From a phage, in the NCBI GenBank assembly GCA_024875585.1, contig GCA_024875585.1_4107.1: 64,000 nucleotides of DNA, one strand, 5' to 3'. Below the pieces are notes generated by a model. That model saw only the letters and a program-made list of their open reading frames with translations, made no database searches and had not been told where the DNA came from. The first letter of the stretch is position 1. The number at the start of each line of letters is the position of its first letter. Made by a program: the position numbers and the translations under genes. Shown here in pieces: positions 1 to 12,221 of the stretch.

Positions 1-49
1 CGCGATTGAGGATGTTTAAAGTATTTTTGCAAAAAGTAATAAAAAGTAC

Positions 50-77
50 TTGCACGATTAAGAGATTAGAGTATAAT
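50..77 (+). promoter_or_regulatory. sigma70-type promoter, class I (AAAAAGTACTTGCA...TATAAT)
   Basis: -35-like TTGCAC, ~16 nt spacer, -10 TATAAT; module recurs >10x in window. Confidence 0.6.
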
Positions 78-122
78 TAATTACATCAAGACAAGACACC
101 TTAACTAACTGAGGATATAAAG

Positions 123-275
123 ATGAATACTTATGAACTGGATTGTTTTACTTTACAAGTAATGTCAGTATGCAGTAAAAAAGATTGGTCATCAAAGGAA
201 TTTAAAGCAGTTATTGCGTGTGCAAAACACGGCAAGACTATCAATGAAACGGCATCAATCATTGATAAACTTTAA
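123..275 (+). CDS. hypothetical small protein (50 aa)
   Basis: ATG with GAGG SD downstream of class I promoter; below ORF-track size cutoff. Confidence 0.5.
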   Translation: MNTYELDCFTLQVMSVCSKKDWSSKEFKAVIACAKHGKTINETASIIDKL

Positions 276-283
276 AAAATAGT

Positions 284-312
284 TTGACAATAGTTTTAAG
301 TACTGCGATAAT
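284..312 (+). promoter_or_regulatory. sigma70-type promoter, class II (TTGACA-N17-GATAAT)
   Basis: TTGACA 284-289, GATAAT 307-312; AGTACTG immediately upstream of -10. Confidence 0.6.
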
Positions 313-345
313 ACATACATCAACTACTGAATAGGAATAAAAACA

Positions 346-573
346 ATGGCTATCGTAATCACTCGCGTAACTGGTACTACTGGCACTGCTTCAACTGTTG
401 CTGTAATTACTAATAAGAAAGGTGCAGAATTACATTTTGCAATGGATAAATGGGCCGTTAATGAGTTTGGTCAGTGGGCAAGTGTAGAATACATTGAAAC
501 CTATCAAGTGCCATCGATTAGCTTAACTGATTTAGGTGTAGAACGTATCCTTTGTCTGGATGAATTAAATTAA
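346..573 (+). CDS. hypothetical protein (75 aa)
   Basis: ORF with SD AGGAATAAAAACA-ATG after class II promoter. Confidence 0.7.
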   Translation: MAIVITRVTGTTGTASTVAVITNKKGAELHFAMDKWAVNEFGQWASVEYIETYQVPSISLTDLGVERILCLDELN

Positions 574-581
574 AAAAGTAC

Positions 582-609
582 TTGCAAAGTAAATCGAATA
601 AAGTATAAT
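582..609 (+). promoter_or_regulatory. sigma70-type promoter, class I
   Basis: TTGCAA / TATAAT, 16-nt spacer. Confidence 0.6.
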
Positions 610-621
610 ACATTACATCAA

Positions 622-642
622 GGGGAGAAAATGGTTCTCCCC
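622..642 (+). promoter_or_regulatory. 5' leader hairpin (GGGGAGAA-loop-TTCTCCCC)
   Basis: perfect 8-bp inverted repeat between promoter and SD; same structure in >10 leaders with compensatory changes. Confidence 0.6.
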
Positions 643-660
643 ACTAAGAGGAAACTAAAA

Positions 661-804
661 ATGAAAACTTGTCAATGTGGTAAAAAATCTATTACTGGTT
701 TGAAACGGGGCGTTTCACTTTGCCAGTACCATTATAATTTACAAGTATGGGGTAAAGAATGGGCCGACCAGGTTGAAGCATCAAAGAAAGCAAAAAGTAA
801 GTAA
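661..804 (+). CDS. hypothetical small Cys-containing protein (47 aa)
   Basis: ATG after SD AAGAGGAAA; MKTCQCGKK...; below track cutoff. Confidence 0.55.
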   Translation: MKTCQCGKKSITGLKRGVSLCQYHYNLQVWGKEWADQVEASKKAKSK

Positions 805-823
805 AATTATTATCACAGTACTA

Positions 824-852
824 TTGACATAGATTGATAGTACTGGCATAAT
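824..852 (+). promoter_or_regulatory. sigma70-type promoter, class III (TTGACA-N17-CATAAT inside CAGTACTA/TAGTACTG palindrome)
   Basis: TTGACA 824-829, CATAAT 847-852; flanked by inverted AGTACT hexamers. Confidence 0.6.
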
Positions 853-885
853 AGATTTTATCAAGACAACTAAGAGGAAATTAAA

Positions 886-1098
886 ATGGCTATCATTATT
901 AAAAACAAAGTTAATAAGACTATCGTTAAACTGGCAGAAGTGAAAGAAGGTTATAAAGTATCTTGGGAGGGTTTTTATCGGACGTTTACTGATATTGACG
1001 ATGCAATCAATTACTACACTGATACGGTTAAAAACTTTGTTCGTGCTGATGTGGTTATGGCAGTGGCAACATATAAAGCATCAAAAGAAAGTAAGTAA
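886..1098 (+). CDS. hypothetical protein (70 aa); paralog of 3841..4020
   Basis: ORF, SD AAGAGGAAA; N-terminus MAII shared with 3841 ORF. Confidence 0.7.
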   Translation: MAIIIKNKVNKTIVKLAEVKEGYKVSWEGFYRTFTDIDDAINYYTDTVKNFVRADVVMAVATYKASKESK

Positions 1099-1118
1099 AA
1101 AATATTATCACAGTACTA

Positions 1119-1147
1119 TTGACATAGATTGATAGTACTGGCATAAT
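1119..1147 (+). promoter_or_regulatory. sigma70-type promoter, class III (second copy)
   Basis: near-identical to 806-870 module. Confidence 0.6.
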
Positions 1148-1180
1148 AGATTTTATCAAGACAACTAAGAGGAAATTAAA

Positions 1181-1525
1181 ATGGCTAACATCAATACTAT
1201 AGCAGCACAAAATATCAACCTGTCTTCTGTTGAAGTTGTACACATTGCCGCCCGGCGTTGGTTCCAGGCGTCTTATGGTAATACGTATTTCTCTTTAACG
1301 GTAGATGTTGAAATCAATGGCGAATTTATTGAAGTAGTAAACGTGCCGTTCCAATATGGCTACGGGGATCATTTTGACACTGTAGCAATGGAAGAATTAA
1401 GCAAGGTTATTAATATGGAAGGTAAAGAGTTTTTACGCGGTTCTTATCTTTCCCGTTTTTGCCGTGATAATAATATTACTGTTTATAGTTCTGTTAGTGA
1501 TGTTAAACGCAAAAAAGATCTTTAA
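1181..1525 (+). CDS. hypothetical protein (114 aa); paralog of 7222..7545
   Basis: ORF+SD; shares YGYG core and C-terminal VKRKKD with 7222 ORF. Confidence 0.7.
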   Translation: MANINTIAAQNINLSSVEVVHIAARRWFQASYGNTYFSLTVDVEINGEFIEVVNVPFQYGYGDHFDTVAMEELSKVINMEGKEFLRGSYLSRFCRDNNITVYSSVSDVKRKKDL

Positions 1526-1539
1526 TTAGCTTTACTTTA

Positions 1540-1566
1540 TGCAGATACTTTGATACAGTGTCTGCA
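1540..1566 (+). repeat. inverted repeat TGCAGATACTT...CAGTGTCTGCA
   Basis: ~10-bp stem with one wobble; no T-tract, so regulatory/processing site rather than clear terminator. Confidence 0.35.
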
Positions 1567-1605
1567 TAGGGGAAAGAAATTAAATCAACTTAAGAGGATA
1601 GTAAA

Positions 1606-1875
1606 ATGAAAAATATCAGTACTTTAATCGATGCAGGTACACATGTTCGTCGGTCTATGGTTGCAACCAGTTCTACAAAACAAGTAGCGAGCGGTTATCT
1701 TGTATTTGTGCACGATGGTAAACTCCTGGAACGTTCAATCAATTTTGATGTTAAAAACAATTGCCGTTTTATTATCTTTAAGCGTGAGCAATATAAAATT
1801 GATTTACCAGCGAAGCCCATTAGTGGGGCGTACAACGTTCAATCATTGTTTGAGCGTCAACCATACACCTATTAA
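1606..1875 (+). CDS. hypothetical protein (89 aa)
   Basis: ORF with SD AAGAGGATAG. Confidence 0.65.
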   Translation: MKNISTLIDAGTHVRRSMVATSSTKQVASGYLVFVHDGKLLERSINFDVKNNCRFIIFKREQYKIDLPAKPISGAYNVQSLFERQPYTY

Positions 1876-1926
1876 TCAAAACAACGTTAGCGGTCGATTT
1901 AGGCCGCTTATACTGGGGATTATATA

Positions 1927-2199
1927 ATGAATACTAATCAAGTACTGAATGAGATTGAAAGCATCATTAAACCGATGAAGCGTACTGATGCTATGTTAAC
2001 ACCGGAAGAATGCCGCCTTTATGAGCGTTACAGCGTCGAACAAGTCCAGGCAATGGCTATGGCTACCCCAGCCGTTAAACAGCCTGAGAACGCGTTACAG
2101 GACGTTACAGGGGATTATATCATCAATCCAGTACTAGGGAAGATGGAAGCAATCACCGAAGAACAAAAAGACTACTTAAGCCAGTACTTAAAAGGTTAA
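1927..2199 (+). CDS. hypothetical protein (90 aa)
   Basis: ORF; weak SD. Confidence 0.55.
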   Translation: MNTNQVLNEIESIIKPMKRTDAMLTPEECRLYERYSVEQVQAMAMATPAVKQPENALQDVTGDYIINPVLGKMEAITEEQKDYLSQYLKG

Positions 2200-2204
2200 T
2201 TAAT

Positions 2205-2414
2205 ATGCTTACTGTACAGGATAAGATCGACATCTTAAAGGTTAATATGTATGTGATTGATGCAGATCCTGAAAAAGTATTTGCATACGATGATTCTAAT
2301 CGTAGTCCTTTTTATTGTAGTCATGTAGTTGGATATGTGCCGTTATCGTATGTTATCGAAAGAGTGGTTGATTCAGCATACAAACATTTTTTAGAAAATA
2401 GTACTTGCAATTAG
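2205..2414 (+). CDS. hypothetical protein (69 aa)
   Basis: ORF 5 nt after previous stop; SD AAAGG. Confidence 0.55.
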   Translation: MLTVQDKIDILKVNMYVIDADPEKVFAYDDSNRSPFYCSHVVGYVPLSYVIERVVDSAYKHFLENSTCN

Positions 2415-2432
2415 TTTTTAGTACTGTATAAT
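2405..2432 (+). promoter_or_regulatory. sigma70-type promoter, class I
   Basis: TTGCAA / TATAAT; followed by leader hairpin 2446-2464. Confidence 0.6.
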
Positions 2433-2482
2433 GTTTTACATGAAGGGGGGAAATGATTCTCCCCAATAACAGGAGAAACAAA

Positions 2483-2635
2483 ATGAAACAATACAACGCT
2501 CGGTTTGATGTTACTATCGGCAACGGCAAAGGTCAATTCTCTTTCAGTACTCGTAAGAGTTATACAGAAAACTTCTTGCGTAATTGTGCACTGACCGCCG
2601 CACAAATTAAACATTATTTTCAGGCTAAAAAATGA
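2483..2635 (+). CDS. hypothetical protein (50 aa)
   Basis: start moved from track 2453 (ATG inside leader hairpin) to ATG after SD AGGAGAAACA. Confidence 0.6.
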   Translation: MKQYNARFDVTIGNGKGQFSFSTRKSYTENFLRNCALTAAQIKHYFQAKK

Positions 2636-2721
2636 AATCATTAGCTTATTATAGCTCGGCCCTGGTCGGTGCATTGATCGCGGCATTGTTAGTAGCTTAT
2701 CTATTCTTTATGGTGATTTAA
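2632..2721 (+). CDS. small hydrophobic membrane peptide (29 aa)
   Basis: ATGA stop/start overlap; MKSLAYYSSALVGALIAALLVAYLFFMVI. Confidence 0.45.
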   Translation: MKSLAYYSSALVGALIAALLVAYLFFMVI

Positions 2722-2859
2722 ATGAATCCTAACGGTATAATTTACAGTACTCCTAAAACGAAAGCAGATAAAGCGGAAGCACGTAAAGCGAAAGTAAAGG
2801 AGTACATCAAGCAAGGTATGACACGAAAGGCGGCGATTCTAAAAGCTAAAAATAAATGA
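2722..2859 (+). CDS. small basic protein (45 aa)
   Basis: ATG one nt after previous stop; Lys/Ala-rich. Confidence 0.45.
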   Translation: MNPNGIIYSTPKTKADKAEARKAKVKEYIKQGMTRKAAILKAKNK

Positions 2860-2955
2860 AAAAAAGTGGTTGACTTCGGTCAGCCATTTTGCTATTATAT
2901 ATTCATTGAGAGATAGCTCACTAGCCCACAGGGTGCGGGAGTGTATCTATTATAT
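2860..2955 (+). repeat. repeated intergenic element copy 1 (terminator hairpin + embedded TTGACT-N17-TATTAT + conserved tail)
   Basis: ~95-bp sequence repeated at 6270, 9275, 11565; hairpin GGTTGAC-TTCG-GTCAGCC then T-run. Confidence 0.65.
2867..2890 (+). terminator. rho-independent terminator
   Basis: stem GGTTGAC/GTCAGCC, TTCG loop, ATTTTG tail. Confidence 0.6.
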
Positions 2956-3002
2956 AAGTATTGAGTACTGAAAACTATTTTAAAAGTACATGTAGAAAGT
3001 AC

Positions 3003-3030
3003 TTGTAAACTATGTTTAAAGGCGTATAAT
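3003..3030 (+). promoter_or_regulatory. sigma70-type promoter, class I
   Basis: TTGTAA / TATAAT; leader hairpin GGGAAACGGTTTCCC follows. Confidence 0.55.
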
Positions 3031-3082
3031 GTTTTACATCGAGAGCGGGAAACGGTTTCCCCTAGTAATAAGGAATAAAATC

Positions 3083-3424
3083 ATGACTATTGCAATTGTA
3101 CAATCTAACTTTGAAAACGAAATCATCGCCCAAGCACTGCGTTTAAATGATGGTCGGGCCGAAATTAATTACGGTTTCAATTCAGGCGGTTGTGAAAAAT
3201 ATCAGTACTTTATAACTGCTGATGGCGGTGTCCTGGGTATTAATACAGTTATTGTAAACATTCAGAAAATTAATTTCAATGATCCAGACGATAGCCAGTT
3301 TTACATTGTAGGCGTAGACGTGAACTATGAGGATGACTCACTAACTGATGATTACACTGGCGAGAAGTTAGAAAGTGCATACGGTGAAGATGATTATCAG
3401 TCAGTACCGGAAGATTTTGAATAA
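3083..3424 (+). CDS. hypothetical acidic protein (113 aa)
   Basis: start moved from track 3029 to ATG after SD AAGGAATAAAATC. Confidence 0.65.
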   Translation: MTIAIVQSNFENEIIAQALRLNDGRAEINYGFNSGGCEKYQYFITADGGVLGINTVIVNIQKINFNDPDDSQFYIVGVDVNYEDDSLTDDYTGEKLESAYGEDDYQSVPEDFE

Positions 3425-3438
3425 TATTAAAAAATAGT

Positions 3439-3466
3439 TTGACAATAGATTATAGTACTGTATAAT
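3439..3466 (+). promoter_or_regulatory. sigma70-type promoter (TTGACA-N16-TATAAT)
   Basis: TTGACA 3439-3444, TATAAT 3461-3466. Confidence 0.6.
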
Positions 3467-3485
3467 AGTTTACATCAAGGGCGAC

Positions 3486-3528
3486 GGGAAGTTTTAAAAA
3501 CTTCCCTATAGGGAGAATAGTTCTCCCC
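3486..3528 (+). promoter_or_regulatory. tandem 5' leader hairpins (GGGAAGTTT-TAAAA-AACTTCCC and GGGAGAA-TAG-TTCTCCC)
   Basis: two perfect inverted repeats in leader; same pair at 5580-5623 and 9763-9804. Confidence 0.6.
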
Positions 3529-3548
3529 ACTAACAGAGAGAAAACAAA

Positions 3549-3761
3549 ATGGCTAATATCTGCACTGTACTGAAAAATGCAAAACAAGTTTTATTTTCTG
3601 ATCACGATCATTTAAACAAGGATATTACTGGCGTTCGGAATATCAAAGATGTAAAACGTGTTATGGGTATCTATTGCAATATGAAACGTGTCGGCACGTT
3701 CGGTAATAAATTTCTATACCAGGCGGGGGATTACAATTTTACACTGACTATCATTAACTAA
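3549..3761 (+). CDS. hypothetical protein (70 aa)
   Basis: ORF+SD after structured leader. Confidence 0.7.
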   Translation: MANICTVLKNAKQVLFSDHDHLNKDITGVRNIKDVKRVMGIYCNMKRVGTFGNKFLYQAGDYNFTLTIIN

Positions 3762-3780
3762 AAATATTATCACAGTACTA

Positions 3781-3809
3781 TTGACATAGATTGATAGTAC
3801 TGGCATAAT
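3781..3809 (+). promoter_or_regulatory. sigma70-type promoter, class III (third copy)
   Basis: TTGACA 3781-3786, CATAAT 3804-3809. Confidence 0.6.
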
Positions 3810-3840
3810 AGATTTTATTAAAACAACTGAGGAAATTAAA

Positions 3841-4020
3841 ATGGCTATCATCGCAAAAACTGAAATCATCGGCCTGGATTCTATCATCATGACGTTTGAA
3901 GATCAAAAAGGTATGTATGTAGTTTCCTATGGTGATTATGTTCGGGAGTATGAAACGGTAGACGAAGCCTTTGAAAGTTACATTCGCCAGGTGAATAAAG
4001 CATACGACGATTACCGCTAA
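3841..4020 (+). CDS. hypothetical protein (59 aa); paralog of 886..1098
   Basis: ATG after SD GAGGAAATTAAA; below track cutoff. Confidence 0.6.
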   Translation: MAIIAKTEIIGLDSIIMTFEDQKGMYVVSYGDYVREYETVDEAFESYIRQVNKAYDDYR

Positions 4021-4047
4021 AATATATTACCAGTACTATCAAAGCTA

Positions 4048-4075
4048 TTGACAACGTTTGATAGTACTGTATAAT
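4048..4075 (+). promoter_or_regulatory. sigma70-type promoter (TTGACA-N16-TATAAT)
   Basis: TTGACA 4048-4053, TATAAT 4070-4075. Confidence 0.55.
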
Positions 4076-4121
4076 AAGTTTTATCAACTGTAGTTAACTT
4101 AACAAAAGAGAGAGAAACAAA

Positions 4122-4265
4122 ATGATCGCACTGGATTCATTCATCGATGCAGTTCTGGCAAAAACTGGCGAGGATCTGACCGCAGAACAATACGCAATGA
4201 TCGAGCAATGCCAGCAAGACGGTAAATCGGTGAAAGATACTGTTAAGATTATCCGCAAGATGTAA
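4122..4265 (+). CDS. hypothetical small acidic protein (47 aa)
   Basis: ATG after SD AAGAGAGAGA; below cutoff; hairpin follows. Confidence 0.55.
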   Translation: MIALDSFIDAVLAKTGEDLTAEQYAMIEQCQQDGKSVKDTVKIIRKM

Positions 4266-4371
4266 GATTATAAGCCCATTAGTTAACGCTGGTGGGCTTT
4301 AATCATTTACCCTATACAATGCCAGTACTAAACCGTTTATCTCGTTAGAATGCATTACAGGACGTTTGACA

Positions 4372-4569
4372 ATGATTAGCATGAAATCAGTACAAAAACA
4401 AATAGAAACATTATCAAAAATTAAACGTAAACAGTACTCATTAGAATATAATATCAATGGTAACTATCATCTAATGAAAGAGAATAATTTTATCGTCATT
4501 GATGAATCATTGCAAATTATTAGTATAGTACTGAAAGCATTAATTAATGATAGAAAAAGGTTAAAATAA
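4372..4569 (+). CDS. hypothetical protein (65 aa)
   Basis: track ORF starts at TTG 4366; first ATG used; start uncertain. Confidence 0.4.
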   Translation: MISMKSVQKQIETLSKIKRKQYSLEYNINGNYHLMKENNFIVIDESLQIISIVLKALINDRKRLK

Positions 4570-4826
4570 TGGCAGTAGGATTCGCGAAAGATGGAGCCGA
4601 GCAAGATGAGATTAACGCAGTTATTCAAGCCGCCGTTAACCACGCTAGAAAGCAAATTAACGCACAAATAGAATCACTGATACATTGCCTCGACTGCGGC
4701 GATAAAATCCCTGAGAATCGCCGACAGGCTGTTAAGGGATGTAAGTACTGCATAACCTGCCAGGAAGATCATGATAGTACTTTTAAAAGAGATCCGCGTA
4801 ATTGTTGGCATAGATCTATGAGATAA
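4569..4826 (+). CDS. DksA/TraR-family C4 zinc-finger protein
   Basis: CLDCGDKIPENRRQAV-x5-CITCQ, the CxxC-x17-CxxC spacing of TraR/DksA proteins. Confidence 0.65.
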   Translation: MAVGFAKDGAEQDEINAVIQAAVNHARKQINAQIESLIHCLDCGDKIPENRRQAVKGCKYCITCQEDHDSTFKRDPRNCWHRSMR

Positions 4827-4833
4827 AAAGTAA

Positions 4834-4861
4834 TTGACAGTACTGAAAGATAGTGTATAAT
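4834..4861 (+). promoter_or_regulatory. sigma70-type promoter
   Basis: TTGACA 4834-4839, TATAAT 4856-4861. Confidence 0.55.
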
Positions 4862-4890
4862 GTTTTATATCTTAACTGAGGATAGAAATC

Positions 4891-5247
4891 ATGGGAATAC
4901 AACATATCACGCGGACCACTGACAATGGCGAGATCACTGGTTATCAAGTACAGGGCAAAGTAGCACAATTGCAGTACTGGTTTGTTAAACGTGGAATCAT
5001 TGCACCGGATCTTGATTATGACCGTGTAGCGTTTATTGATTCTCTTTATGTTGATCCTGATAGTCGGGGCAATGGTGAAGGTAACGAATTAATGAATGCC
5101 TTTATTGATGCTGCCGATGATTCAGATTGTATCATTTTAGAATGCGATACGGGAGAAGATAACGCCTTCAATCTTAAAGAATGGTACGAAGGTTTCGGAT
5201 TCGAAGTACTGATCGATAGTGAATATCCTATCATGATTTTATCATAG
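4891..5247 (+). CDS. GNAT-family N-acetyltransferase (putative)
   Basis: FIDSLYVDPDSRGNGEGNELMNAFID resembles GNAT motif A (acetyl-CoA binding loop). Confidence 0.5.
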   Translation: MGIQHITRTTDNGEITGYQVQGKVAQLQYWFVKRGIIAPDLDYDRVAFIDSLYVDPDSRGNGEGNELMNAFIDAADDSDCIILECDTGEDNAFNLKEWYEGFGFEVLIDSEYPIMILS

Positions 5248-5261
5248 TACTAAAAAAGTAA

Positions 5262-5289
5262 TTGACAGTACTATCAGATAGTGTATAAT
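5262..5289 (+). promoter_or_regulatory. sigma70-type promoter
   Basis: TTGACA / TATAAT; leader hairpin GGGGAAACATCTTCCCC 5302-5318. Confidence 0.55.
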
Positions 5290-6867: not shown

Positions 6868-6870
6868 GTA

Positions 6871-6898: not shown

Positions 6899-6952
6899 AG
6901 TTTACATCAAGTGAGGGGAATGGTTCCCCTCCTAACAAAGAGAGAAATAAAA

Positions 6953-7135: not shown

Positions 7136-7138
7136 GTA

Positions 7139-7166
7139 TTGACAAAGTATCTTAGTACTGTATAAT
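7139..7166 (+). promoter_or_regulatory. sigma70-type promoter, class IV (second copy)
   Basis: near-identical to 6868-6900; leader hairpin 7181-7200. Confidence 0.6.
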
Positions 7167-7221
7167 AGTTTACATCAAGTGAGGGGAAACGGTTCCCCTC
7201 CTAACAAAGAGAGAAATAAAA

Positions 7222-7545
7222 ATGACTATGATCCTTGCCCAGAAAGTAGAACTGAAAATTGTAACTTCCTTTGACATTAAAGTTAATCGCTGGACTGATC
7301 GGAACGGTAATACTTACCACTCTTGCTACGTGTCTGCATTGATTGGTGATCGTTGGGAAGACTTGGGACACGAAACCTTTACATACGGTTATGGTACGCA
7401 AGGCGAATACACTGGTTTGGAGATCATTAAAGAAACCGTTATAGGTTTCAACCCGAAAGAAAAAGTTATTCACCGCATCGAAAAAGAGATTAACAAAGAA
7501 ATAACAGTTCGCTACTACGATGTAAAACGTAAGAAAGACATGTAA
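7222..7545 (+). CDS. hypothetical protein (107 aa); paralog of 1181..1525
   Basis: ORF+SD; FTYGYG and C-terminal VKRKKD shared. Confidence 0.7.
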   Translation: MTMILAQKVELKIVTSFDIKVNRWTDRNGNTYHSCYVSALIGDRWEDLGHETFTYGYGTQGEYTGLEIIKETVIGFNPKEKVIHRIEKEINKEITVRYYDVKRKKDM

Positions 7546-7567
7546 TAGAATCCATTTAAAGTACTAT

Positions 7568-7596
7568 TTGACATTACACAGATAGTACTTTATAAT
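7568..7596 (+). promoter_or_regulatory. sigma70-type promoter
   Basis: TTGACA-N17-TATAAT. Confidence 0.55.
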
Positions 7597-7640
7597 AGAC
7601 TCTAACTTGTAGTACTAACTTAACTAATAGGATGTATACC

Positions 7641-8036
7641 ATGATTACTAAATTCTACGCTACCCGTGAAGCTGCCCGTATTGTTGCACGCGAGGAAGGA
7701 GCGGCATTTAAAGACATGGGCAAAGATGCACCGAAAGGCCAACGCTGGAGCGTACAGTTCAAAGAAATCTCTGATATTGTGAATTCACCTGAACCAGTAC
7801 TGACAGCAGCAGAACAGAAGAAAGCTGATGAACTGGCGGCAATTCTTAACGCTCAAGATGAATTCGTCGAGGGTGCTGATATCCAGGTTGTAGTAAATTC
7901 GAATGCATGGACTCACGCGGATCATCTGGCTAACCTGAAGCGTCCAAGCGTACTGATTCGCAACCAGAAAGAGATCCGTCATGACCGTAAGGGTAATCGT
8001 GTAACAGTATACAGTAAACGCCGCCAGGTTATCTAA
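7641..8036 (+). CDS. hypothetical protein (131 aa), GC-richer than neighbours
   Basis: ORF; start ATG 7641 or 7632; host-like codon usage by eye. Confidence 0.6.
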   Translation: MITKFYATREAARIVAREEGAAFKDMGKDAPKGQRWSVQFKEISDIVNSPEPVLTAAEQKKADELAAILNAQDEFVEGADIQVVVNSNAWTHADHLANLKRPSVLIRNQKEIRHDRKGNRVTVYSKRRQVI

Positions 8037-8058
8037 TAACTTGCAGTTCTAACAACAC

Positions 8059-8083
8059 GGCGGGATCTGTTCCCGCCTTTTTT
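8059..8083 (+). terminator. rho-independent terminator
   Basis: GGCGGGA-TCTGT-TCCCGCC then TTTTTT. Confidence 0.75.
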
Positions 8084-8098
8084 ACAGGATAAACTAAA

Positions 8099-8353
8099 AT
8101 GATTAAGGTAAAACTATCTAAAGATAATATCTTGCGGGTACACTATAAAGCCCCTCAGAGAATCATCACAAAGGCCGTACAGCTTGCGAATGAGTTTATT
8201 AATGGTAATCTATTACCTAGGAAGTTAAGCAACGGAAAACTGCGTGTAATCGATGTAGACACTAACAACAGAATAGTAATAGAGAATACCGGAAAGATAA
8301 ACCTATATGAACACCAACAATATAATAAGAAAATAAAACTAATTAGTCGTTGA
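8099..8353 (+). CDS. hypothetical protein (84 aa)
   Basis: ORF+SD AGGATAAACTAAA. Confidence 0.65.
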   Translation: MIKVKLSKDNILRVHYKAPQRIITKAVQLANEFINGNLLPRKLSNGKLRVIDVDTNNRIVIENTGKINLYEHQQYNKKIKLISR

Positions 8354-8378
8354 CAGTACTCAAATGTTTTAGTACTAT
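8350..8378 (+). promoter_or_regulatory. sigma70-type promoter (TTGACAGTACTCAAAT...TACTAT)
   Basis: TTGACA-N17-TACTAT. Confidence 0.5.
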
Positions 8379-8407
8379 ATATCTATACCAACACGGAGAG
8401 AAACAAA

Positions 8408-8626
8408 ATGAAATTATCTAAAATCGAAAAGAAAACTATTGACGTAGCTATCCAACATGGTTACACATTTCGTAATGATTTACATTTTACCAATTTTCAA
8501 CAAGGGTATCGTACTATTAAAAAACTAATTGACAAAGGTTTATTAGTTAAAGTAGACAACGGCAACGGCGTTGAATATCAACCAACACAGGACGCATTTA
8601 ATTTTAAGAAATATAATATTATCTAA
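8408..8626 (+). CDS. hypothetical protein (72 aa)
   Basis: ORF+SD CGGAGAGAAACA. Confidence 0.65.
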   Translation: MKLSKIEKKTIDVAIQHGYTFRNDLHFTNFQQGYRTIKKLIDKGLLVKVDNGNGVEYQPTQDAFNFKKYNII

Positions 8627-8655
8627 TTGACAGTACTCAAATATTTTAGTACTAT
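8627..8655 (+). promoter_or_regulatory. sigma70-type promoter (copy of 8350 module)
   Basis: TTGACAGTACTCAAAT...TACTAT. Confidence 0.5.
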
Positions 8656-8682
8656 ATCTATACCAACACAGGAAAAAACAAA

Positions 8683-9267
8683 ATGCGTAATTATACTAAA
8701 TTCATCCGTACACTGTCAGAAATGGAAACCAACAAAGAGATCTTGACAGCTTGTCGGTTAGCTGGTCTGGAGATCATCGGTGCGGGGTCTTCCCGTATTG
8801 TATTCGCTTTAAATGATCGGTTAGTGATTAAGGTCGCGAATTGTGATGCAGGTGTAGAACAAAATGAAACAGAATGTAAAGTATGGAATTTTTTAGATTA
8901 TGACCGCCCTCAGTTGAAACAGTTCTTTGCTAAAGTACATATGCATTTAAGCGATCCTGATAATATGTTTATTGTTATGGATCGGTTGAGTACTGCAAGT
9001 AAAGGCAGTGTAAAGCACGTTAATGCGTGCAACGAATTAAAGTACAATATTAAACGTAATGCCATTGAACGCCAACACCGCTTTGCTGATGCACTACAAC
9101 ACGTAGATGATACATTATCAACACTAACGATTAGAGATATCAGAAAACAGAATATCGGCCAGGATCGAAATGGACTGATTAAAGTACTTGATTATGGTTT
9201 AACCCGCAATATCTGGAATCAGTACTATAAAAAGCGTGATGTAGCAGCAAGTAAGGTAACACGATAA
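8683..9267 (+). CDS. putative protein kinase-like protein (194 aa)
   Basis: IGAGSSRIVF...VIKVA (Gly-loop + Lys), RDIRKQNIG (catalytic-loop-like), LDYGL (DFG-like); from memory, unverified. Confidence 0.4.
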   Translation: MRNYTKFIRTLSEMETNKEILTACRLAGLEIIGAGSSRIVFALNDRLVIKVANCDAGVEQNETECKVWNFLDYDRPQLKQFFAKVHMHLSDPDNMFIVMDRLSTASKGSVKHVNACNELKYNIKRNAIERQHRFADALQHVDDTLSTLTIRDIRKQNIGQDRNGLIKVLDYGLTRNIWNQYYKKRDVAASKVTR

Positions 9268-9274
9268 AAAAGAT

Positions 9275-9372
9275 TAAAAAAGGGATTGACTCCGGTCAGT
9301 CCCTTTGCTATTATATATTCATTGAGAGATAACTCACTGACCCATAGGGTGCGGGAGTGTATCTATTATATA
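9275..9372 (+). repeat. repeated intergenic element copy 3
   Basis: hairpin GGGATTGAC-TCCG-GTCAGTCCC + conserved tail. Confidence 0.65.
9282..9307 (+). terminator. rho-independent terminator
   Basis: stem + TTTG. Confidence 0.55.
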
Positions 9373-9407
9373 AGTATTGAGTACTGAAAACTATTTTTAA
9401 AAAGTAC

Positions 9408-9435
9408 TTGCAATGTACTTAGAATCAAGTATAAT
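9408..9435 (+). promoter_or_regulatory. sigma70-type promoter, class I
   Basis: TTGCAA / TATAAT; leader hairpin 9450-9468. Confidence 0.6.
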
Positions 9436-9489
9436 GTTTTATATCGAGAGGGGGAAATGGTTCTCCCCAATACAATAAGGAATAAAATC

Positions 9490-9711
9490 ATGACTACAAT
9501 GACTTGCATTTACGCTTCCAATCTTCTGAATGATGCGGCCTTTAATGTTGATTCAGAATATCAATGTTATCGGGATGAAAATAAAAAAGTTTTTGTAGTT
9601 GATAATAATGGTTTCCATATTGAATTGCAATCCGGCTTCACTGGCGTTGATGGTAAATCAGTATGGGGCGTACAGGATGATAAAGGTACATATCATTTTA
9701 AACGTAATTAA
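9490..9711 (+). CDS. hypothetical protein (73 aa)
   Basis: start moved from 9457 to ATG after SD TAAGGAATAAAATC. Confidence 0.65.
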   Translation: MTTMTCIYASNLLNDAAFNVDSEYQCYRDENKKVFVVDNNGFHIELQSGFTGVDGKSVWGVQDDKGTYHFKRN

Positions 9712-9714
9712 GTA

Positions 9715-9742
9715 TTGACAAAGTATCTTAGTACTGTATAAT
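9715..9742 (+). promoter_or_regulatory. sigma70-type promoter, class IV
   Basis: TTGACA / TATAAT; two leader hairpins 9763-9804. Confidence 0.6.
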
Positions 9743-9826
9743 AGTTTACATCAAGGGCAACGGGAAGTTTTTAAAACTTCCCTATAGGGAGAATAGATCT
9801 CCCCGATACTAAAAGGAAACAAAAAT

Positions 9827-10099
9827 ATGTCTAGCTACTCCGCTACTATGATCATTAAAGATATGAACGGTAATCCTACTGCTGCTGGTGGATCATTTGG
9901 AAACATTAACTTAGATGGTCGGTTAACCATGCAATCAGCCATCAATGCAGCGAAAGAAGTTTTTAAGAATGAATGCACTGTAAGTAAGCTGGATTATATG
10001 GGATTCGCTATCGAGAAAACTAATCGTTTTGTGAACTACAAAAATCCACTGATGATTGATACCAACCTGAAAGCTAACGAAGTGGAATACTTATTATGA
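9827..10099 (+). CDS. hypothetical protein (90 aa)
   Basis: ORF+SD AAAAGGAAACA. Confidence 0.7.
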   Translation: MSSYSATMIIKDMNGNPTAAGGSFGNINLDGRLTMQSAINAAKEVFKNECTVSKLDYMGFAIEKTNRFVNYKNPLMIDTNLKANEVEYLL

Positions 10100-10287
10100 C
10101 AGTTGAAGAAGTTAAAAAAGTACTGGCAGTTCTACGCTATCATAATCATTGCAAGGTGAAGAATGATCCTGATTATCTTGATTCATCCCTTGAGGAAGAC
10201 ACATTAAACGCAATAAGCTATATGCAAACATTATTAAAACGTATGACCGAAAAGAATAGACCGGACTATATCGGAAATAAAATTTAA
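10096..10287 (+). CDS. hypothetical protein (63 aa)
   Basis: ATGA overlap with upstream gene. Confidence 0.55.
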   Translation: MTVEEVKKVLAVLRYHNHCKVKNDPDYLDSSLEEDTLNAISYMQTLLKRMTEKNRPDYIGNKI

Positions 10288-10294
10288 AAAGTAC

Positions 10295-10322
10295 TTGCAT
10301 TGTAGTTAGATTAACGTATAAT
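10295..10322 (+). promoter_or_regulatory. sigma70-type promoter, class I
   Basis: TTGCAT / TATAAT; leader hairpin 10337-10353. Confidence 0.6.
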
Positions 10323-10373
10323 GTTTTATATCGAGAGGGGAAATGGTTTCCCCTCAAGTCCAGGAGATACACA

Positions 10374-10637
10374 ATGAACACTATCGAAATCACTATCAAT
10401 GCTCACGTATACGACAACGTAGTACTGCAAACTACTATGACCGCTAATGATACCAGAACTTTGCGGAATACTGTTATAAGTGCCGTATGTGCTGCAATTG
10501 GTGATGTATCCCTGGAAAATGCAGAACATATCAACAACGGTTTCACTATGTGCAAACGTGATAACGCAAAACATATCATCGTAGAAGGTTACGGCGGTGT
10601 AGAATATAATCTTTATATGAAAAAAGTACTTGCATAG
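10374..10637 (+). CDS. hypothetical protein (87 aa)
   Basis: ORF+SD CAGGAGATACACA. Confidence 0.7.
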   Translation: MNTIEITINAHVYDNVVLQTTMTANDTRTLRNTVISAVCAAIGDVSLENAEHINNGFTMCKRDNAKHIIVEGYGGVEYNLYMKKVLA

Positions 10638-10657
10638 TAACTAAAACAAAGTATAAT
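10629..10657 (+). promoter_or_regulatory. sigma70-type promoter, class I (overlaps 3' end of previous CDS)
   Basis: TTGCAT / TATAAT; leader hairpin GGGGGAG-ATATC-CTCCCCC. Confidence 0.55.
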
Positions 10658-10704
10658 GTTTTGCATAGGGGGAGATATCCTCCCCCACTAAAAGGAGTAC
10701 TAAA

Positions 10705-10929
10705 ATGGCTAACTTTGATGAACTGATGCGGGAAGTAGCTACCCTGGCAGAAGAGAAGAAATCATTTGATTCTATCTATAACACCTCTTACCGTGATTCA
10801 GTACTGGCATGTAACCAGGATCAAAAAGATGAACTAATCGCCACCTATCATGAAGCGTGGAAGTATTACCGCCAATGGGAGAAAGAAGAAAGTGAGTCTA
10901 CCATTGACGGCCTCAATAATCTAATCTAA
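10705..10929 (+). CDS. hypothetical acidic protein (74 aa)
   Basis: ORF+SD AAAAGGAGTAC. Confidence 0.7.
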   Translation: MANFDELMREVATLAEEKKSFDSIYNTSYRDSVLACNQDQKDELIATYHEAWKYYRQWEKEESESTIDGLNNLI

Positions 10930-10947
10930 AGTTTTATTTCAGTACTA

Positions 10948-10976
10948 TTGACATAGATTGATAGTACTGATATGAT
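10948..10976 (+). promoter_or_regulatory. sigma70-type promoter, class III variant
   Basis: TTGACATAGATTGATAGTACTGA-TATGAT. Confidence 0.55.
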
Positions 10977-11004
10977 AACTTTACTAACTACAAGGGGAAA
11001 CATC

Positions 11005-11262
11005 ATGGAACAATTCACACAATATCGGGTAAATCCTCAAGCTATGGCATACGTAGAAGACCATAAAACGTTACCAGTACAAACACCAATTAAAGGCCAT
11101 ATCTATCGTGCAATGTCATGGAATCCGGCCCAGGATGGCTATAAAACCGTAGCCGTGGGTATGTACTGCGGTAATGGTGAATGGTTTGATCCTAACAATC
11201 CGATTGCACTTGATAGTACTGAAAAAATGAAATGGGCCGACTACATCGAAGATATTTCATAA
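11005..11262 (+). CDS. hypothetical protein (85 aa)
   Basis: start moved from 10972 to ATG after SD CAAGGGGAAACATC. Confidence 0.6.
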   Translation: MEQFTQYRVNPQAMAYVEDHKTLPVQTPIKGHIYRAMSWNPAQDGYKTVAVGMYCGNGEWFDPNNPIALDSTEKMKWADYIEDIS

Positions 11263-11268
11263 AAATTA

Positions 11269-11297
11269 TTTGACAGTACTAACCAGTAATGTATAAT
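11269..11297 (+). promoter_or_regulatory. sigma70-type promoter
   Basis: TTGACA-N17-TATAAT; leader hairpin with covarying GCGGGGG/CTCCCGC. Confidence 0.6.
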
Positions 11298-11352
11298 GTT
11301 TTACATAGAGCGGGGGAATAGTTCTCCCGCCAATAGTTTGGAGTAAAACATT

Positions 11353-11553
11353 ATGTCTATCGCTATCGCCCTGGTCGAAGTACTGAAAGAAGCTAAAGCC
11401 AACCTTATCGATGTACAGATTAAGGAATTGCAAAATGGCTTAATCGGCTGTACTTGTACCGCTGGTGGCCCGTCAGACTATCGGGAATTCGAATCACTTG
11501 AATCGATGGTCCGTTATCTTACAATCATCGTAGAAGATTGGAGAATCATCTAA
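11353..11553 (+). CDS. hypothetical protein (66 aa)
   Basis: ORF+SD TTTGGAGTAAAACATT. Confidence 0.65.
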   Translation: MSIAIALVEVLKEAKANLIDVQIKELQNGLIGCTCTAGGPSDYREFESLESMVRYLTIIVEDWRII

Positions 11554-11564
11554 CAAAAAAAAAG

Positions 11565-11660
11565 AATAAAAAGGGATTGACTCCGGTCAGTCCCTTTGCT
11601 ATTATATACGCATAGACAAAAACTAGCCCACAGGGTGCATAGGTGTATCTAAAATATATA
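11565..11660 (+). repeat. repeated intergenic element copy 4 (diverged tail)
   Basis: same hairpin as copy 3; downstream half partly diverged. Confidence 0.55.
11573..11598 (+). terminator. rho-independent terminator
   Basis: GGGATTGAC-TCCG-GTCAGTCCC + TTTG. Confidence 0.55.
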
Positions 11661-11716
11661 GTTAATAACGGTGAGTAACCATCTGCTGGTGGAGTGAAAA
11701 CTATTAATAAAAAGTA

Positions 11717-11746
11717 TTGACAAAGTATATCAGTACTGCAATAATG
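11717..11746 (+). promoter_or_regulatory. sigma70-type promoter
   Basis: TTGACA, AGTACTG, A/T-rich -10. Confidence 0.45.
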
Positions 11747-11799
11747 TATCTCGTAGGGCGGCAATGGTGCGACGGCCCACAAAGTTAGGAGATACACAA

Positions 11800-12132
11800 A
11801 TGAGTACTTCAATCGCTATCGTTAAAGCTTTCATCCGTACCAACGTTTCATCTGTATTCATTGACGGATTGGATCGGGAAGTAGAATACTCAATCATTAT
11901 CGCACAAACGGCAAACGGTGCTCGGTACATCCTTAATGATAGTGAAGCAAATCACTACTACTTCACTAAAGCCACTGGCTTTAAACGCATCGATGCTGAT
12001 GTAGTATACGCTAAGATGAATAAGCTGGTAGATAAGATTAACACTAAAGGTACTATCGATTTACAGTACTGGACCGAAACCGATCCAGAATATGGATCTC
12101 ACCGCTACCTGAATCCAGGTATTAAAATGTAA
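11800..12132 (+). CDS. hypothetical protein (110 aa)
   Basis: start moved from 11764 to ATG after SD TTAGGAGATACACAA. Confidence 0.65.
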   Translation: MSTSIAIVKAFIRTNVSSVFIDGLDREVEYSIIIAQTANGARYILNDSEANHYYFTKATGFKRIDADVVYAKMNKLVDKINTKGTIDLQYWTETDPEYGSHRYLNPGIKM

Positions 12133-12138
12133 AAAGTA

Positions 12139-12167
12139 CTTGTGTAGCACTTAGATTTAAGTATAAT
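12139..12167 (+). promoter_or_regulatory. sigma70-type promoter, class I
   Basis: TTGTGT / TATAAT; leader hairpin 12182-12200. Confidence 0.6.
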
Positions 12168-12221
12168 GTTTTTCATAGAGAGGGGGAAATGGTTCTCCCT
12201 CATAAATTAAGGAGTTTTATC

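Follow-up and report, generated by a model that had tools for sequence, protein, structure and literature searches.

PeSL-type regulatory cassettes of T4-type phages combine a promoter, a stem-loop and an orphan gene, and breakpoints of synteny fall within them (PMC2839356). Among the relatives of the phage considered here, direct terminal repeats (DTRs) of ~21 kb have been verified by PhageTerm and by digests (PMC13070987, PMC11895373), a sigma70-like factor is encoded (PMC5259590), and several methyltransferases occur in the clade, the DNA of RaK2 being reported as methylated (PMC3622015, PMC11895373). The DNA analyzed here, a stretch of 64,000 nucleotides referred to below as the window, is assigned by sequence comparison to an Asteriusvirus (Rak2-like) jumbo coliphage, a jumbo myovirus; its nearest relatives are the Asteriusviruses UE-S1 (97.7%) and 121Q, PBECO4 and G17 (~92%). 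Window positions 9710-14381 are colinear in alignment with 18212-22864 of vB_Ec-M-J, and the annotated DTR end of the latter at 21,525 corresponds to window position ~13,020; hence, positions 1 to ~13,020 (+ strand) lie inside the DTR, as its inner part, and carry an array of single-gene early cassettes with 76 copies of the hexamer AGTACT (5.8 per kb).

PeSL-Type Cassettes of the Direct Terminal Repeat

On the evidence of its sequence and of comparison with relatives, this inner part of the ~21-kb DTR is made up of ~34 PeSL-type regulatory cassettes. Each begins with an A-rich tract upstream of a near-consensus sigma70 promoter and has a stem-loop, located either over the -35 and spacer or within the 5' leader; a Shine-Dalgarno sequence then precedes a single small gene, in most cases an orphan. 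The anatomy is that of the T4-type cassettes, down to the synteny breakpoints, which fall within cassettes in 12 of 13 cases against TH47 and in 7 of 9 against vB_Ec-M-J, where 30% would be expected; the cassettes also serve as recombination joints at which genes are shuffled between relatives. By analogy with the early regions of T4-type phages and T5, host RNA polymerase would fire the cassette promoters upon DNA entry.

A reading of the sequence combined with a scan of it yielded 34 strong sigma70-like putative promoters, all + strand and located from 41 to 13,120, nearly every one with a small ORF directly downstream; 33 of them lie within 41-12170, in agreement with the roughly 30 that a first-pass annotation had placed there. 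The near-verbatim repetition described in that annotation is likewise evident, for the class III string occurs verbatim three times (816, 1111 and 3773) and that of class IV likewise three times (6868, 7136 and 9712), but the four classes it proposed are replaced, at a clustering threshold of 78% identity, by seven multi-member clusters and 11 singletons. AGTACT, which all promoters were said to carry next to the -10, is present in 29 of the 34, being absent from four hairpin-type promoters of the form TTGACT-N17/18-TATTAT (2870, 6278, 9286 and 11577) and from the promoter at 13093, and it adjoins the -10 in only 15. The second copy attributed to classes I and III holds for class III, in which two copies are listed per promoter (e.g., 817/839), and mostly fails for class I, in which 11 promoters have a single copy overlapping the -35 (AGTACTTGCA) and both copies are found only at 2405 and 5533. 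Altogether, two copies occur in 11 promoters at a distance of 16-31 bp, mostly 20-22 bp, and one copy in 18 of the 29 hexamer-bearing promoters; relative to the -10, the hexamer takes five registers, with starts at -7/-8, -17/-18, -27, -30/-31 and -38.

All of the promoters are on the + strand, and hexamer starts are given in brackets. Class III promoters lie at 816-852 (817 and 839), 1111-1147 (1112 and 1134) and 3773-3809 (3774 and 3796), with a variant at 10940-10976 (10941 and 10963), and class IV promoters at 6863-6898 (6886), 7131-7166 (7154) and 9707-9742 (9730). Spacers of 16 bp are found in AGTACTTGCAC-N16-TATAAT at 41-77 (45, overlapping the -35), AGTACTTGCAA-N16-TATAAT at 573-609 (577) and 9399-9435 (9403), AGTACTTGTAA-N16-TATAAT at 2994-3030 (2998), TTGACA-N16-TATAAT at 3431-3466 (3454), AGTACTTGCAT-N16-TATAAT at 6404-6440 (6408), 10286-10322 (10290) and 10621-10657 (10625), and AGTACTTGTGT-N16-TATAAT at 5852-5888 (5856) and 12131-12167 (12135), the last promoter in the DTR. 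Spacers of 17 bp characterize TTGACA-N17-GATAAT at 276-312 (299, the CTG of which gives an extended -10 TG), TTGACA-N17-TAAAAT at 6523-6559 (6546) and TTGACA-N17-AATAAT at 11709-11745 (11732). Two-hexamer promoters occupy 2396-2432 (2400, overlapping the -35, and 2420, adjoining the -10) and 5524-5560 (5528 and 5548); those of the TTGACAGTACT type occupy 4826-4861 (4839), 5246-5289 (5246 and 5267) and 11262-11297 (11275); and the type TTGACAGTACT-N-AGTACTAT is represented at 8342-8378 (8355 and 8371, the second overlapping the -10) and 8619-8655 (8632 and 8648), a pair that flanks a swappable ORF at 8408-8626. The hairpin-embedded promoters, which lack the hexamer, extend over 2863-2965 (TTGACT-N17-TATTAT), 6270-6375 (TTGACT-N18-TATTAT) and 9279-9380, each with a conserved ~60-nt element, and over 11570-11666, with a diverged copy of that element. 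The first promoter past the DTR, TTGACT-N16-TAAAAT at 13085-13120, is also without AGTACT and heads a 28-member paralogue array.

The paired hexamers had been interpreted as dyads forming a dimeric site; however, several of them coincide with inverted repeats of 12-14 bp, i.e., with stem-loops of the PeSL type. The promoter at 816-852 has a 12-bp inverted repeat over its -35 and spacer (fold -13 kcal/mol, z -3.8), the hexamers at 4032 and 4063 form the base of a perfect 13-bp repeat in the promoter at 4031-4075 (-16 kcal/mol, z -5.4), and those at 7560 and 7584 form the base of a 14-bp repeat in the promoter at 7557-7596 (-15.3 kcal/mol, z -7.9). The inner arms of these repeats differ among classes yet stay complementary, and PeSL stem-loops without operator function would explain such dyads equally well. 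AGTACT might be mainly a structural or recombinational word, serving as the self-complementary base of the stem-loops and/or as the site at which a protein initiates recombination among cassettes, the same role that has been speculated for GGGG...CCCC (PMC2839356). The strongly negative folding z-scores of class III and of the promoters at 4048 and 7568, the clustering of breakpoints in cassettes, and the GTACT-built stems of some hairpin promoters in the Pectobacterium phage CBB would all fit; nevertheless, we consider this reading decidedly unlikely, given the many promoters with one copy only, a near-Poisson spacing outside the DTR with no excess of close pairs, and an equal enrichment in conserved late genes that do not shuffle.

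Conservation and Phasing of the Hexamer in Promoters

Over the 1,647 bp that the promoter windows make up together, AGTACT occurs 40 times, or 24 times per kb as compared with 2.5 per kb in ORFs, a ten-fold difference for the DTR promoters, and with 0.33 per kb predicted by base composition. When the promoters were compared with their orthologues in TH47 and vB_Ec-M-J, AGTACT was 97% identical, the -10 96-97%, the -35 92% and the rest of the spacer 82-86%, so that the hexamer exceeds the flanking spacer, contrary to the refuting outcome named with the first-pass annotation; it is also invariant although spacers vary between promoter classes. With the -10 hexamer taken as -12 to -7, its centers in the DTR promoters fall near -16.5, -26.5, -36.5 and -47.5, on one face of the helix and in constant phase with the -10 (R = 0.72, class-level p ~2e-5). 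The DTR promoters of CBB, a phage of another genus, share the layout AGTACT(T)TG(A/C)CA-N9-10-AGTACT-N-TATAAT and the same phase (R = 0.81). Some hairpin-promoter stems of CBB are made of GTACT. In both phages, the sigma70-like promoters outside the DTR are without AGTACT.

A phage-specific promoter-recognition element had been offered as one explanation; however, the five registers make a fixed RNA-polymerase or sigma element unlikely. In its wider form, this explanation takes AGTACT as a genuine promoter element that host RNA polymerase, perhaps modified by the phage, or a phage sigma factor or appropriator would recognize, with the ORF copies incidental. It would account for a hexamer as conserved as the -10 and phased with it, for the G after AGTACT that makes an extended -10 TG beside a weak -10 in promoters with 17-bp spacers, and for the sigma70-like factor of relatives (PMC5259590). 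Besides the registers, it is confronted with the palindromic nature of the word and its symmetric flanks, with promoters of 16-bp spacer in which the TG is one base too near the -10 hexamer to function as its extension, and with the ~70% of copies that lie in ORFs under purifying selection and with codon bias, late opposite-strand genes included; we regard it as quite unlikely.

AGTACT across the Window, the Genome, and the Clade

The window contains 200 copies of AGTACT against 16.9 +/- 4.4 in dinucleotide-preserving shuffles, none of 100 of which reached 200, and 37 copies of CAGTACTG. Since 142 of the 200 (~70%) are internal to ORFs, in all three frames (59/32/51), the signal is not specific to promoters as first supposed. 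The palindrome, (C)AGTACT(G), is spread over positions 1-64000 and thins out in no more than two stretches, both just past the DTR, where it drops to background level (2 copies in 13.0-17.8 kb, 1 in 20.1-27.1 kb); its function would thus be dispensable there, and the bias varies along the genome. The complete relative TH47 has 909 copies against 118 expected and 203 of CAGTACTG against 3.7, a 55-fold excess, whereas single-mismatch variants of AGTACT are enriched merely 0.4-2.2-fold. Most of the ~900 copies in the full genome are ORF-internal, on either strand, and late structural genes are included. On its two sides, the hexamer has flanks of reverse-complement symmetry, with C at -1 and G at +1, and the information is confined to 8 bp, as would be expected of a symmetric reader of double-stranded DNA; the preference at -1 is graded, from C (47%) through T and A to G far behind (7%), and -3 and -2 are uninformative.

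The excess, ~6-8-fold in genomes from which most other palindromes, GC-rich ones included, have been removed, extends over four Rak2-like genera and is found in phages of Escherichia, Klebsiella, Cronobacter, Pectobacterium and Yersinia (RaK2 6.9x, CBB 6.4x, GAP32 6.3x, fHe-Yen9-04 5.6x), and AGTACT, with CAGTACTG as its optimum, is the hallmark word throughout the enterobacterial Rak2-like clade. No copy was found in 30 kb of XacN1 (Xanthomonas) or in 50 kb of the coliphage RB49, and three were present in a 50-kb sample of E. coli K-12. Selection acting on the DNA itself maintains the word in every class of ORF and on either strand: AGT-ACT encodes 369 of 711 Ser-Thr pairs (107 expected), and the remaining two frames show a ~5-fold excess. 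The excess persists after correction for codon usage. Between the window and TH47, the intact hexamer is kept in 73.5% of cases in ORFs (47% for other hexamers) and in 91% in intergenic DNA (51%). Some sites in the tail-sheath gene are common to five phages of four genera, the same alignment columns being occupied by AGTACT at 66-73% protein identity. An excess without function, arising from the duplication of cassettes, from biased mutation or repair, or from codon usage, could draw on the plainly duplicated cassettes and on sites common to members of paralogue families; nonetheless, it is disfavored as very improbable by the excess in every frame, in intergenic DNA and beyond codon usage, by the retention of the intact word far above hexamers of the same composition, by the occupancy of the same columns across genera, and by the background-level islands.

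Alternatively, AGTACT may be the target of a phage modifying (methyltransferase), restriction-like or nicking enzyme, in which case promoter modification could separate injected from newly replicated DNA. A sharp palindrome of 6-8 bp with barely enriched single-mismatch variants is typical of type II enzymes; the word is missing in the samples of RB49 and XacN1 and rare in that of E. coli, as a restriction target would be, and a phage with 900 copies would need protection; and methyltransferases and methylated DNA are reported in the clade (PMC3622015, PMC11895373). The window itself encodes a PF05869 methyltransferase at 51114-51635. However, characterized PF05869 members methylate GATC or lack sequence specificity, and none is known to target AGTACT. 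Modification, moreover, lifts counter-selection only and leaves the positive selection for ~900 copies unexplained, and the graded flank preference resembles a gradient of binding affinity more closely. With the DNA of fEgEco12, ten enzymes gave the predicted cuts, so that it carries no global modification (PMC13070987). On balance, an enzyme target appears unlikely.

The word could also be read by a host protein of Enterobacterales, the candidate being the nucleoid-occlusion factor SlmA (site GTGAGTACTCAC), with a use such as a block of cell division. The 6-bp core is identical (PMC3020112), and the excess is seen in phages of five enterobacterial host genera and not in the Xanthomonas phage XacN1. 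The SlmA site, however, requires G1, T2 and a purine at position 3 (PMC3020112), whereas the phage sites are uninformative at -3/-2 and prefer C at -1, only 6 of the 909 come as close to that site as two mismatches, and the 50 kb of coliphage RB49 hold no AGTACT; this host factor is accordingly a highly improbable reader.

A Proposed Reader of AGTACT

The best explanation, to which we give a probability of roughly 40%, combines PeSL-type cassettes in the DTR with a conserved, symmetric AGTACT-binding factor. The common dimeric regulator site suggested at the outset is upheld in its symmetry, conservation and phasing; its promoter specificity is not, and several of its dyads are stem-loops. The reader would most likely be a symmetric (dimeric) factor that binds DNA sequence-specifically and is shared across the clade; the phage probably encodes it or brings it in with the virion. 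Against this explanation, Pfam scans of ~58 window proteins revealed no convincing DNA-binding domain save a DksA/TraR zinc finger. Moreover, the sole ORF with the annotation of a transcriptional regulator (8408-8626) does not occur in TH47, which still has the full motif excess.

With such a factor bound at the promoters, sigma70 polymerase would be gated in the immediate-early class, in the simplest case as a shut-off once the factor accumulates. At the same time, the ~900 dispersed sites give the phage ~40x the site density of the sampled stretch of E. coli DNA, and through this difference, the same factor may discriminate between phage and host DNA.

Phage identity and the terminal repeat

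By megablast, the window belongs to Asteriusvirus, Rak2-like jumbo myoviruses of E. coli; its closest relative is UE-S1 (97.7% over 25 kb), while 121Q, PBECO4, phAPEC6 and G17 stand at about 92%, and its approximately 160 ORFs are all on the + strand. Relatives have direct terminal repeats (DTRs) of approximately 21 kb, verified by PhageTerm and by digestion (PMC13070987; PMC11895373). In the relative vB_Ec-M-J, the annotated DTR ends at 21,525 and positions 18212-22864 are colinear with window 9710-14381, which places the DTR end at approximately window 13,020; therefore, the "first 12.9 kb" singled out as promoter-dense by the first-pass annotation is the inner part of the terminal repeat. 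Just inside this boundary (window 12930-12995), a perfect 13-bp inverted repeat (AAAAAAGTCAAGG / CCTTGACTTTTTT) has its arms 40 nt apart, and TTGACTTTTT is found again at 13093; the repeat may serve as a terminator, or as a repeat-boundary or packaging signal.

The E. coli Chi sequence (GCTGGTGG) occurs eight times in the window against approximately 0.4 expected for both strands together, at 4288, 5430, 6365, 9884, 11461, 11685 and 59011 on the + strand and at 50365 on the - strand. Six co-oriented copies lie within the DTR, three of them intergenic, and in the right-hand copy of the DTR they would be oriented towards RecBCD coming in from the end of the genome on that side; the complete genome of TH47, a relative used for comparison, contains 23 copies.

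The promoter array as PeSL-like cassettes

A consensus scan of the + strand from 1 to 13.5 kb at a threshold of at least 10 of 12 matches yields 31 promoters, nine of which match at all 12 positions, and with the TTGCAT and TTGTGT variants missed by the scan the total becomes 34. A-tracts stand upstream of the -35 in these promoters. Clustering gives seven repeated classes and 11 singletons, with the class III string (816, 1111, 3773) and the class IV string (6868, 7136, 9712) each present verbatim three times. AGTACT is carried by 29 promoters, in two copies in 11 of them; it lies 1-2 bp from the -10 in 15, and in 11 the only copy is one overlapping the -35 (AGTACTTGCA). The promoters lacking it are four hairpin-embedded TTGACT-N17/18-TATTAT promoters and the first promoter past the DTR (13093). 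Promoter windows totalling 1,647 bp hold 40 hexamers, or 24 per kb versus 2.5 per kb in ORFs, so that the repeated AGTACT promoter array reported at first reading is real and far beyond chance; its description as four classes, all with AGTACTG abutting the -10, was overstated on both counts. Outside the DTR, sigma70-like promoters are without the hexamer in both the window and CBB (a Rak2-like Pectobacterium phage of another genus, Mimasvirus), the window's one exception being the promoter at 19562. Because the cassettes are duplicates, raw promoter counts are not independent, and class-level and orthologue-level tests were therefore used.

Each unit proceeds from an A-rich tract through the promoter, a conserved initial transcribed segment (TTTACAT) and a Shine-Dalgarno sequence to one small ORF, and most units include a leader hairpin (GGGG...CCCC), which follows approximately 18 promoters. 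The stem-loop of other classes spans the -35 and spacer, for example as GC-rich hairpins in the four TTGACT-type promoters; 12-14 bp inverted repeats in class III and in the promoters at 4048 and 7568 fold at -13 to -16 kcal/mol (z -3.8 to -7.9). Most early ORFs have no Pfam match; recognisable domains are limited to four early genes of the DTR (4569-4826, 4891-5247, 8099-8353 and 8683-9267), which encode a DksA/TraR C4 zinc finger, a GNAT acetyltransferase, a ParE-like toxin domain that the CBB DTR also contains, and a weakly matching protein-kinase-like domain. Synteny breakpoints fall inside cassettes in 12 of 13 cases against TH47 (p = 5e-6) and in seven of nine against vB_Ec-M-J (p = 0.004), with cassettes covering 30% of the region. 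Between two identical promoters lies the ORF at 8408-8626 (72 aa), which vB_Ec-M-J and Turkey5 also have and which is replaced in TH47, a clean example of cassette exchange.

These units correspond to the promoter-early stem-loop cassettes (PeSLs) described in the T4-type phages RB49 and phi1 (Arbiol et al. 2010, PMC2839356; Comeau et al. 2014, PMC4122927), in that a strong sigma70-consensus promoter with an AT-rich tract before the -35, a stable stem-loop next to it whose place with respect to the -35 and -10 varies, and orphan genes in a hyperplastic region rearranged at the cassettes are all found here. As in RB49 and phi1, repeats of approximately 100 bp combine an A-rich tract, a consensus sigma70 promoter and a Shine-Dalgarno sequence, the stem-loop lies between or overlapping the -35 and -10 or downstream of them (PMC2839356), and the repeats flank small orphan genes of a plastic region whose breakpoints lie in the cassettes. 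Unlike in those phages, the array sits in a terminal repeat of approximately 21 kb, in a jumbo phage of the Rak2-like group, which neither PeSL paper covers (PMC2839356, PMC4122927), and many stems are built on AGTACT rather than on GGGG/CCCC, the PeSLs of RB49 being without AGTACT. The cassettes inside the DTR are of PeSL type, and the array is a known kind of element in a new setting, which extends the idea of mobile promoter/stem-loop joints shuffling orphan genes beyond T4-type phages, into the terminal repeats of jumbo phages of 350 kb. We regard a purely structural or recombinational role, with AGTACT serving as the base of PeSL stems, as quite improbable.

The terminal repeat of T5 carries the pre-early (first-step-transfer) genes, which act in host takeover and have strong promoters for the host polymerase. 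The present array likewise lies in a long direct terminal repeat, with small genes behind strong promoters all reading inward from the genome end. To our knowledge, the two are homologous neither in sequence nor in protein, no palindrome is common to the T5 promoters, and two-step DNA transfer is not known in Rak2-like phages.

A further repeat unit of approximately 100 nt, at window 2863-2965, 6270-6375, 9279-9380 and 11570-11666 and in CBB (L013) near 32419, 34343, 41099, 42001 and 43316, consists of a GC-rich hairpin containing the TTGACT-N17/18-TATTAT promoter and, after the hairpin, a conserved segment of approximately 60 nt (…TTCATTG…GCCCAYAGGGTGCG…TATCT…). It is conserved between the Asteriusvirus and Mimasvirus DTRs, with some compensatory changes in two small helices, and may be a small RNA or a protein-binding element; an Rfam search of 1-13.5 kb gave no match to it and nothing else relevant.

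Genome-wide excess of AGTACT

The window contains 200 copies of AGTACT, where shuffled sequences give 16.9 +/- 4.4; 142 of them lie within ORFs (frames 59/32/51), mostly outside any promoter context. In TH47, 909 copies compare with 118 expected and 203 copies of the octamer CAGTACTG with 3.7, that is, an excess of approximately 8-fold and 55-fold, respectively; the three most enriched hexamers there are CAGTAC, GTACTG and AGTACT, while single-mismatch variants reach just 0.4-2.2-fold. The flanks are reverse-complement symmetric, with C at -1 and G at +1, and information is limited to these 8 bp. Palindromes are otherwise extremely avoided across the whole window, TH47 (L002-L008) and the samples of RaK2, GAP32, CBB and fHe-Yen9-04; since GCGC (zero versus 331 expected) and 23 of 64 palindromic hexamers, including the PstI, SacI, XhoI, SphI, PvuII, KpnI and SalI sites, are absent from the 350 kb of TH47, AGTACT stands as the lone exception to this avoidance.

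Copies number approximately 10 per 5 kb in either gene orientation, with maxima of 30-43 per 5 kb in the DTR. The dispersed sites are not regularly spaced, their distribution being near-Poisson (CV 0.87-1.04). Two stretches adjoining the DTR hold the word at background level only. A paralogous family of 28 densely packed, overlapping ORFs of 64-90 aa begins right past the DTR (13121-20611, plus 32178-32369), with almost no AGTACT in its members at 13.1-17.8 kb and 16 copies in those at 17.8-20.1 kb. A 7-kb stretch (20100-27100) contains orphan ORFs without Pfam match and a single AGTACT, shows a lower identity to TH47 (74-84%) and corresponds to an 8.4-kb AGTACT-free gap in that genome. Of the paralogue families in the window, the one richest in AGTACT, at 4.2 per kb, is a seven-member family of approximately 150-aa ORFs (28096-30402 and 35644-37345), in which a AGTACTGTATAC...GAAGTACTTGA pair 20 bp apart is conserved in at least two members (28096-28578 and 29956-30402).

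Selection on the word and its range across phages

Within coding sequence, 369 of 711 Ser-Thr pairs are encoded AGT-ACT, where codon usage predicts 107, and the other frames are also enriched (xAG-TAC-Txx 5.3-fold; xxA-GTA-CTx 5.0-fold). The dipeptides Ser-Thr and Val-Leu are themselves in excess, whereas Thr-Ser and Leu-Val are not. Since every frame shows the excess, at 3.4-5.3 times what codon usage predicts, neither codon nor dipeptide bias accounts for the word. When the window is compared with TH47 (85% identity), AGTACT remains intact in 73.5% of cases within ORFs versus 47% for other or same-composition hexamers, and in 91% versus 51% in intergenic DNA. The tail-sheath gene of five phages from four genera contains 6-11 copies in each at a protein identity of 66-73%, with one AGTACT column shared by all five and three columns by four of the five. 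The excess in every frame and the purifying selection on individual copies are those of a signature word, and neutral causes are hardly credible as an explanation.

The excess reaches 6.9-fold in RaK2, 6.3 in GAP32, 6.4 in CBB and 5.6 in fHe-Yen9-04, in samples of 30-50 kb; samples of the same range contained no copy in XacN1, a more distant Xanthomonas phage (30 kb), none in the classic PeSL coliphage RB49 (50 kb; 16 expected), and three against 11.6 expected in E. coli K-12 (50 kb; 0.26-fold). The word is therefore clade-specific among the phages sampled, and its absence from the RB49 sample rules it out as a general PeSL or T4-like trait. Its lack in the RB49 and XacN1 samples and its scarcity in the host sample would also suit a DNA-modifying enzyme targeting AGTACT as a ScaI/Eco255I-type site, an explanation that we consider unlikely; the window's own methyltransferase is of the PF05869 Dam type, and no support was found for it as an AGTACT enzyme. 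Within window 51114-52165, this gene is followed by an ORF annotated as a cytidyltransferase in relatives and without Pfam match here. Elsewhere, at window 58927-62098, are genes annotated in UE-S1 as an RnlA-family RNA ligase and a polynucleotide kinase/phosphatase, a T4-like tRNA-repair pair.

Placement of AGTACT within predicted early promoters

The first-pass annotation had named, as an outcome that would count against it, AGTACT conservation no higher than that of the flanking spacer; the comparison with orthologous promoters shows the opposite: per-base identity is 97% for AGTACT, 96-97% for the -10 and 92% for the -35, as against 82-86% for the rest of the spacer. The hexamers begin at -7/-8, -17/-18, -27, -30/-31 and -38 from the -10, in steps of approximately 10 bp that keep them to a single face of the helix (R = 0.72; at class level R = 0.73, p about 2e-5); any numbering relative to the transcription start takes the -10 hexamer as -12 to -7. 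The DTR promoters of CBB have a matching phase (R = 0.81) and the layout AGTACT(T)TG(A/C)CA-N9-10-AGTACT-t-TATAAT. Every class of predicted immediate-early promoter that bears AGTACT has it at a constant helical phase; as in the operator of a dimeric repressor, a palindrome conserved beyond promoter need lies over the core promoter, overlapping the -35 or within the spacer abutting the -10. A recognition element for polymerase or sigma is distinctly unlikely: such a fixed element would keep a single register relative to the -10, and five are used. An extended -10 is also ruled out as a full explanation, since the TGn arises only in classes with a 17-bp spacer.

Taken with its genome-wide behaviour, AGTACT is a palindromic word selected at the DNA level throughout the clade, with its greatest concentration in a single promoter class, where its phase is locked to that of the -10. 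Searchable literature yielded no description of the signature or of its promoter embedding; the hexamer goes unmentioned in the papers on Asteriusvirus, CBB, RaK2 and PeSLs, overrepresented AGTACT in phages led only to a giant-virus methylome paper, and the octamer CAGTACTG only to primer sequences.

Candidate readers

Pfam analysis of 58 window proteins, including those of the AGTACT-free island and the methyltransferase neighbours, gave almost no matches and no candidate AGTACT-binding protein. The ORF at 8408-8626, annotated as a transcriptional regulator in Turkey5, was rejected as a binder because it is absent from TH47. The operator of TrpR is built on ACTAGT/CTAG rather than AGTACT, and TrpR is set aside as reader on this difference, with ACTAGT at 0.65-fold of expectation. 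A LexA box in AGTACTGTATAAT...ACAT is likewise ruled out, given one CTGT half-site only and a spacing of 10 instead of 8. The site of SlmA, GTGAGTACTCAC, has an AGTACT core in common with the phage word, but it needs G1, T2 and a purine at position 3 beside that core (PMC3020112), whereas the phage sites hold no information at -3/-2, prefer C at -1 and come within two mismatches of the SlmA site in only six of 909 cases. These flanking positions rule against SlmA, which is very improbable as the reader.

Proposed function and meaning

The palindrome points to a symmetric, sequence-specific reader of double-stranded AGTACT that would be conserved in the clade, with both genome-wide and promoter roles; this putative reader may gate the immediate-early promoters, and a site density approximately 40-fold above that of the sampled host DNA would let it mark phage DNA. 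In the boldest reading, to which we give a probability of about one in four, the enterobacterial Rak2-like phages, with unmodified DNA and no known phage nucleus, would label their own DNA with approximately 900 (C)AGTACT(G) sites read by a conserved phage factor. The contrast in density with the host would then tell self from non-self, for use in protection, host shut-off or selective transcription. At the promoters of the terminal repeat, the same factor, bound in helical register, would set the timing of the immediate-early genes or protect against superinfection by related phages.

The operator and stoperator sites of L5, a temperate mycobacteriophage, are asymmetric, orientation-dependent 13-bp sites, present at approximately 20-35 positions. 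As with the repressor sites of L5 and other cluster A phages, one short site is found here both at early promoters and at many positions inside transcription units genome-wide; unlike them, it is a palindrome of 6-8 bp, with approximately 900 copies, inside ORFs and in a virulent jumbo phage. Chi and uptake sequences are asymmetric, unlike the AGTACT palindrome, and we know of no SlmA, Noc, Chi or uptake word that is a promoter-embedded element or has been described for the Rak2-like clade. With SlmA sites (PMC3020112), Noc sites, Chi and DNA uptake sequences, AGTACT shares the character of a short selected word far above chance, in coding DNA and in all frames, able to mark "own" DNA.

AGTACT has been kept across four genera and several host genera, strongly enough to bias codon and even dipeptide usage. 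Identification of the putative reader could reveal by what means large phages whose DNA is unmodified distinguish it from that of the host, and how their early transcription is switched off.
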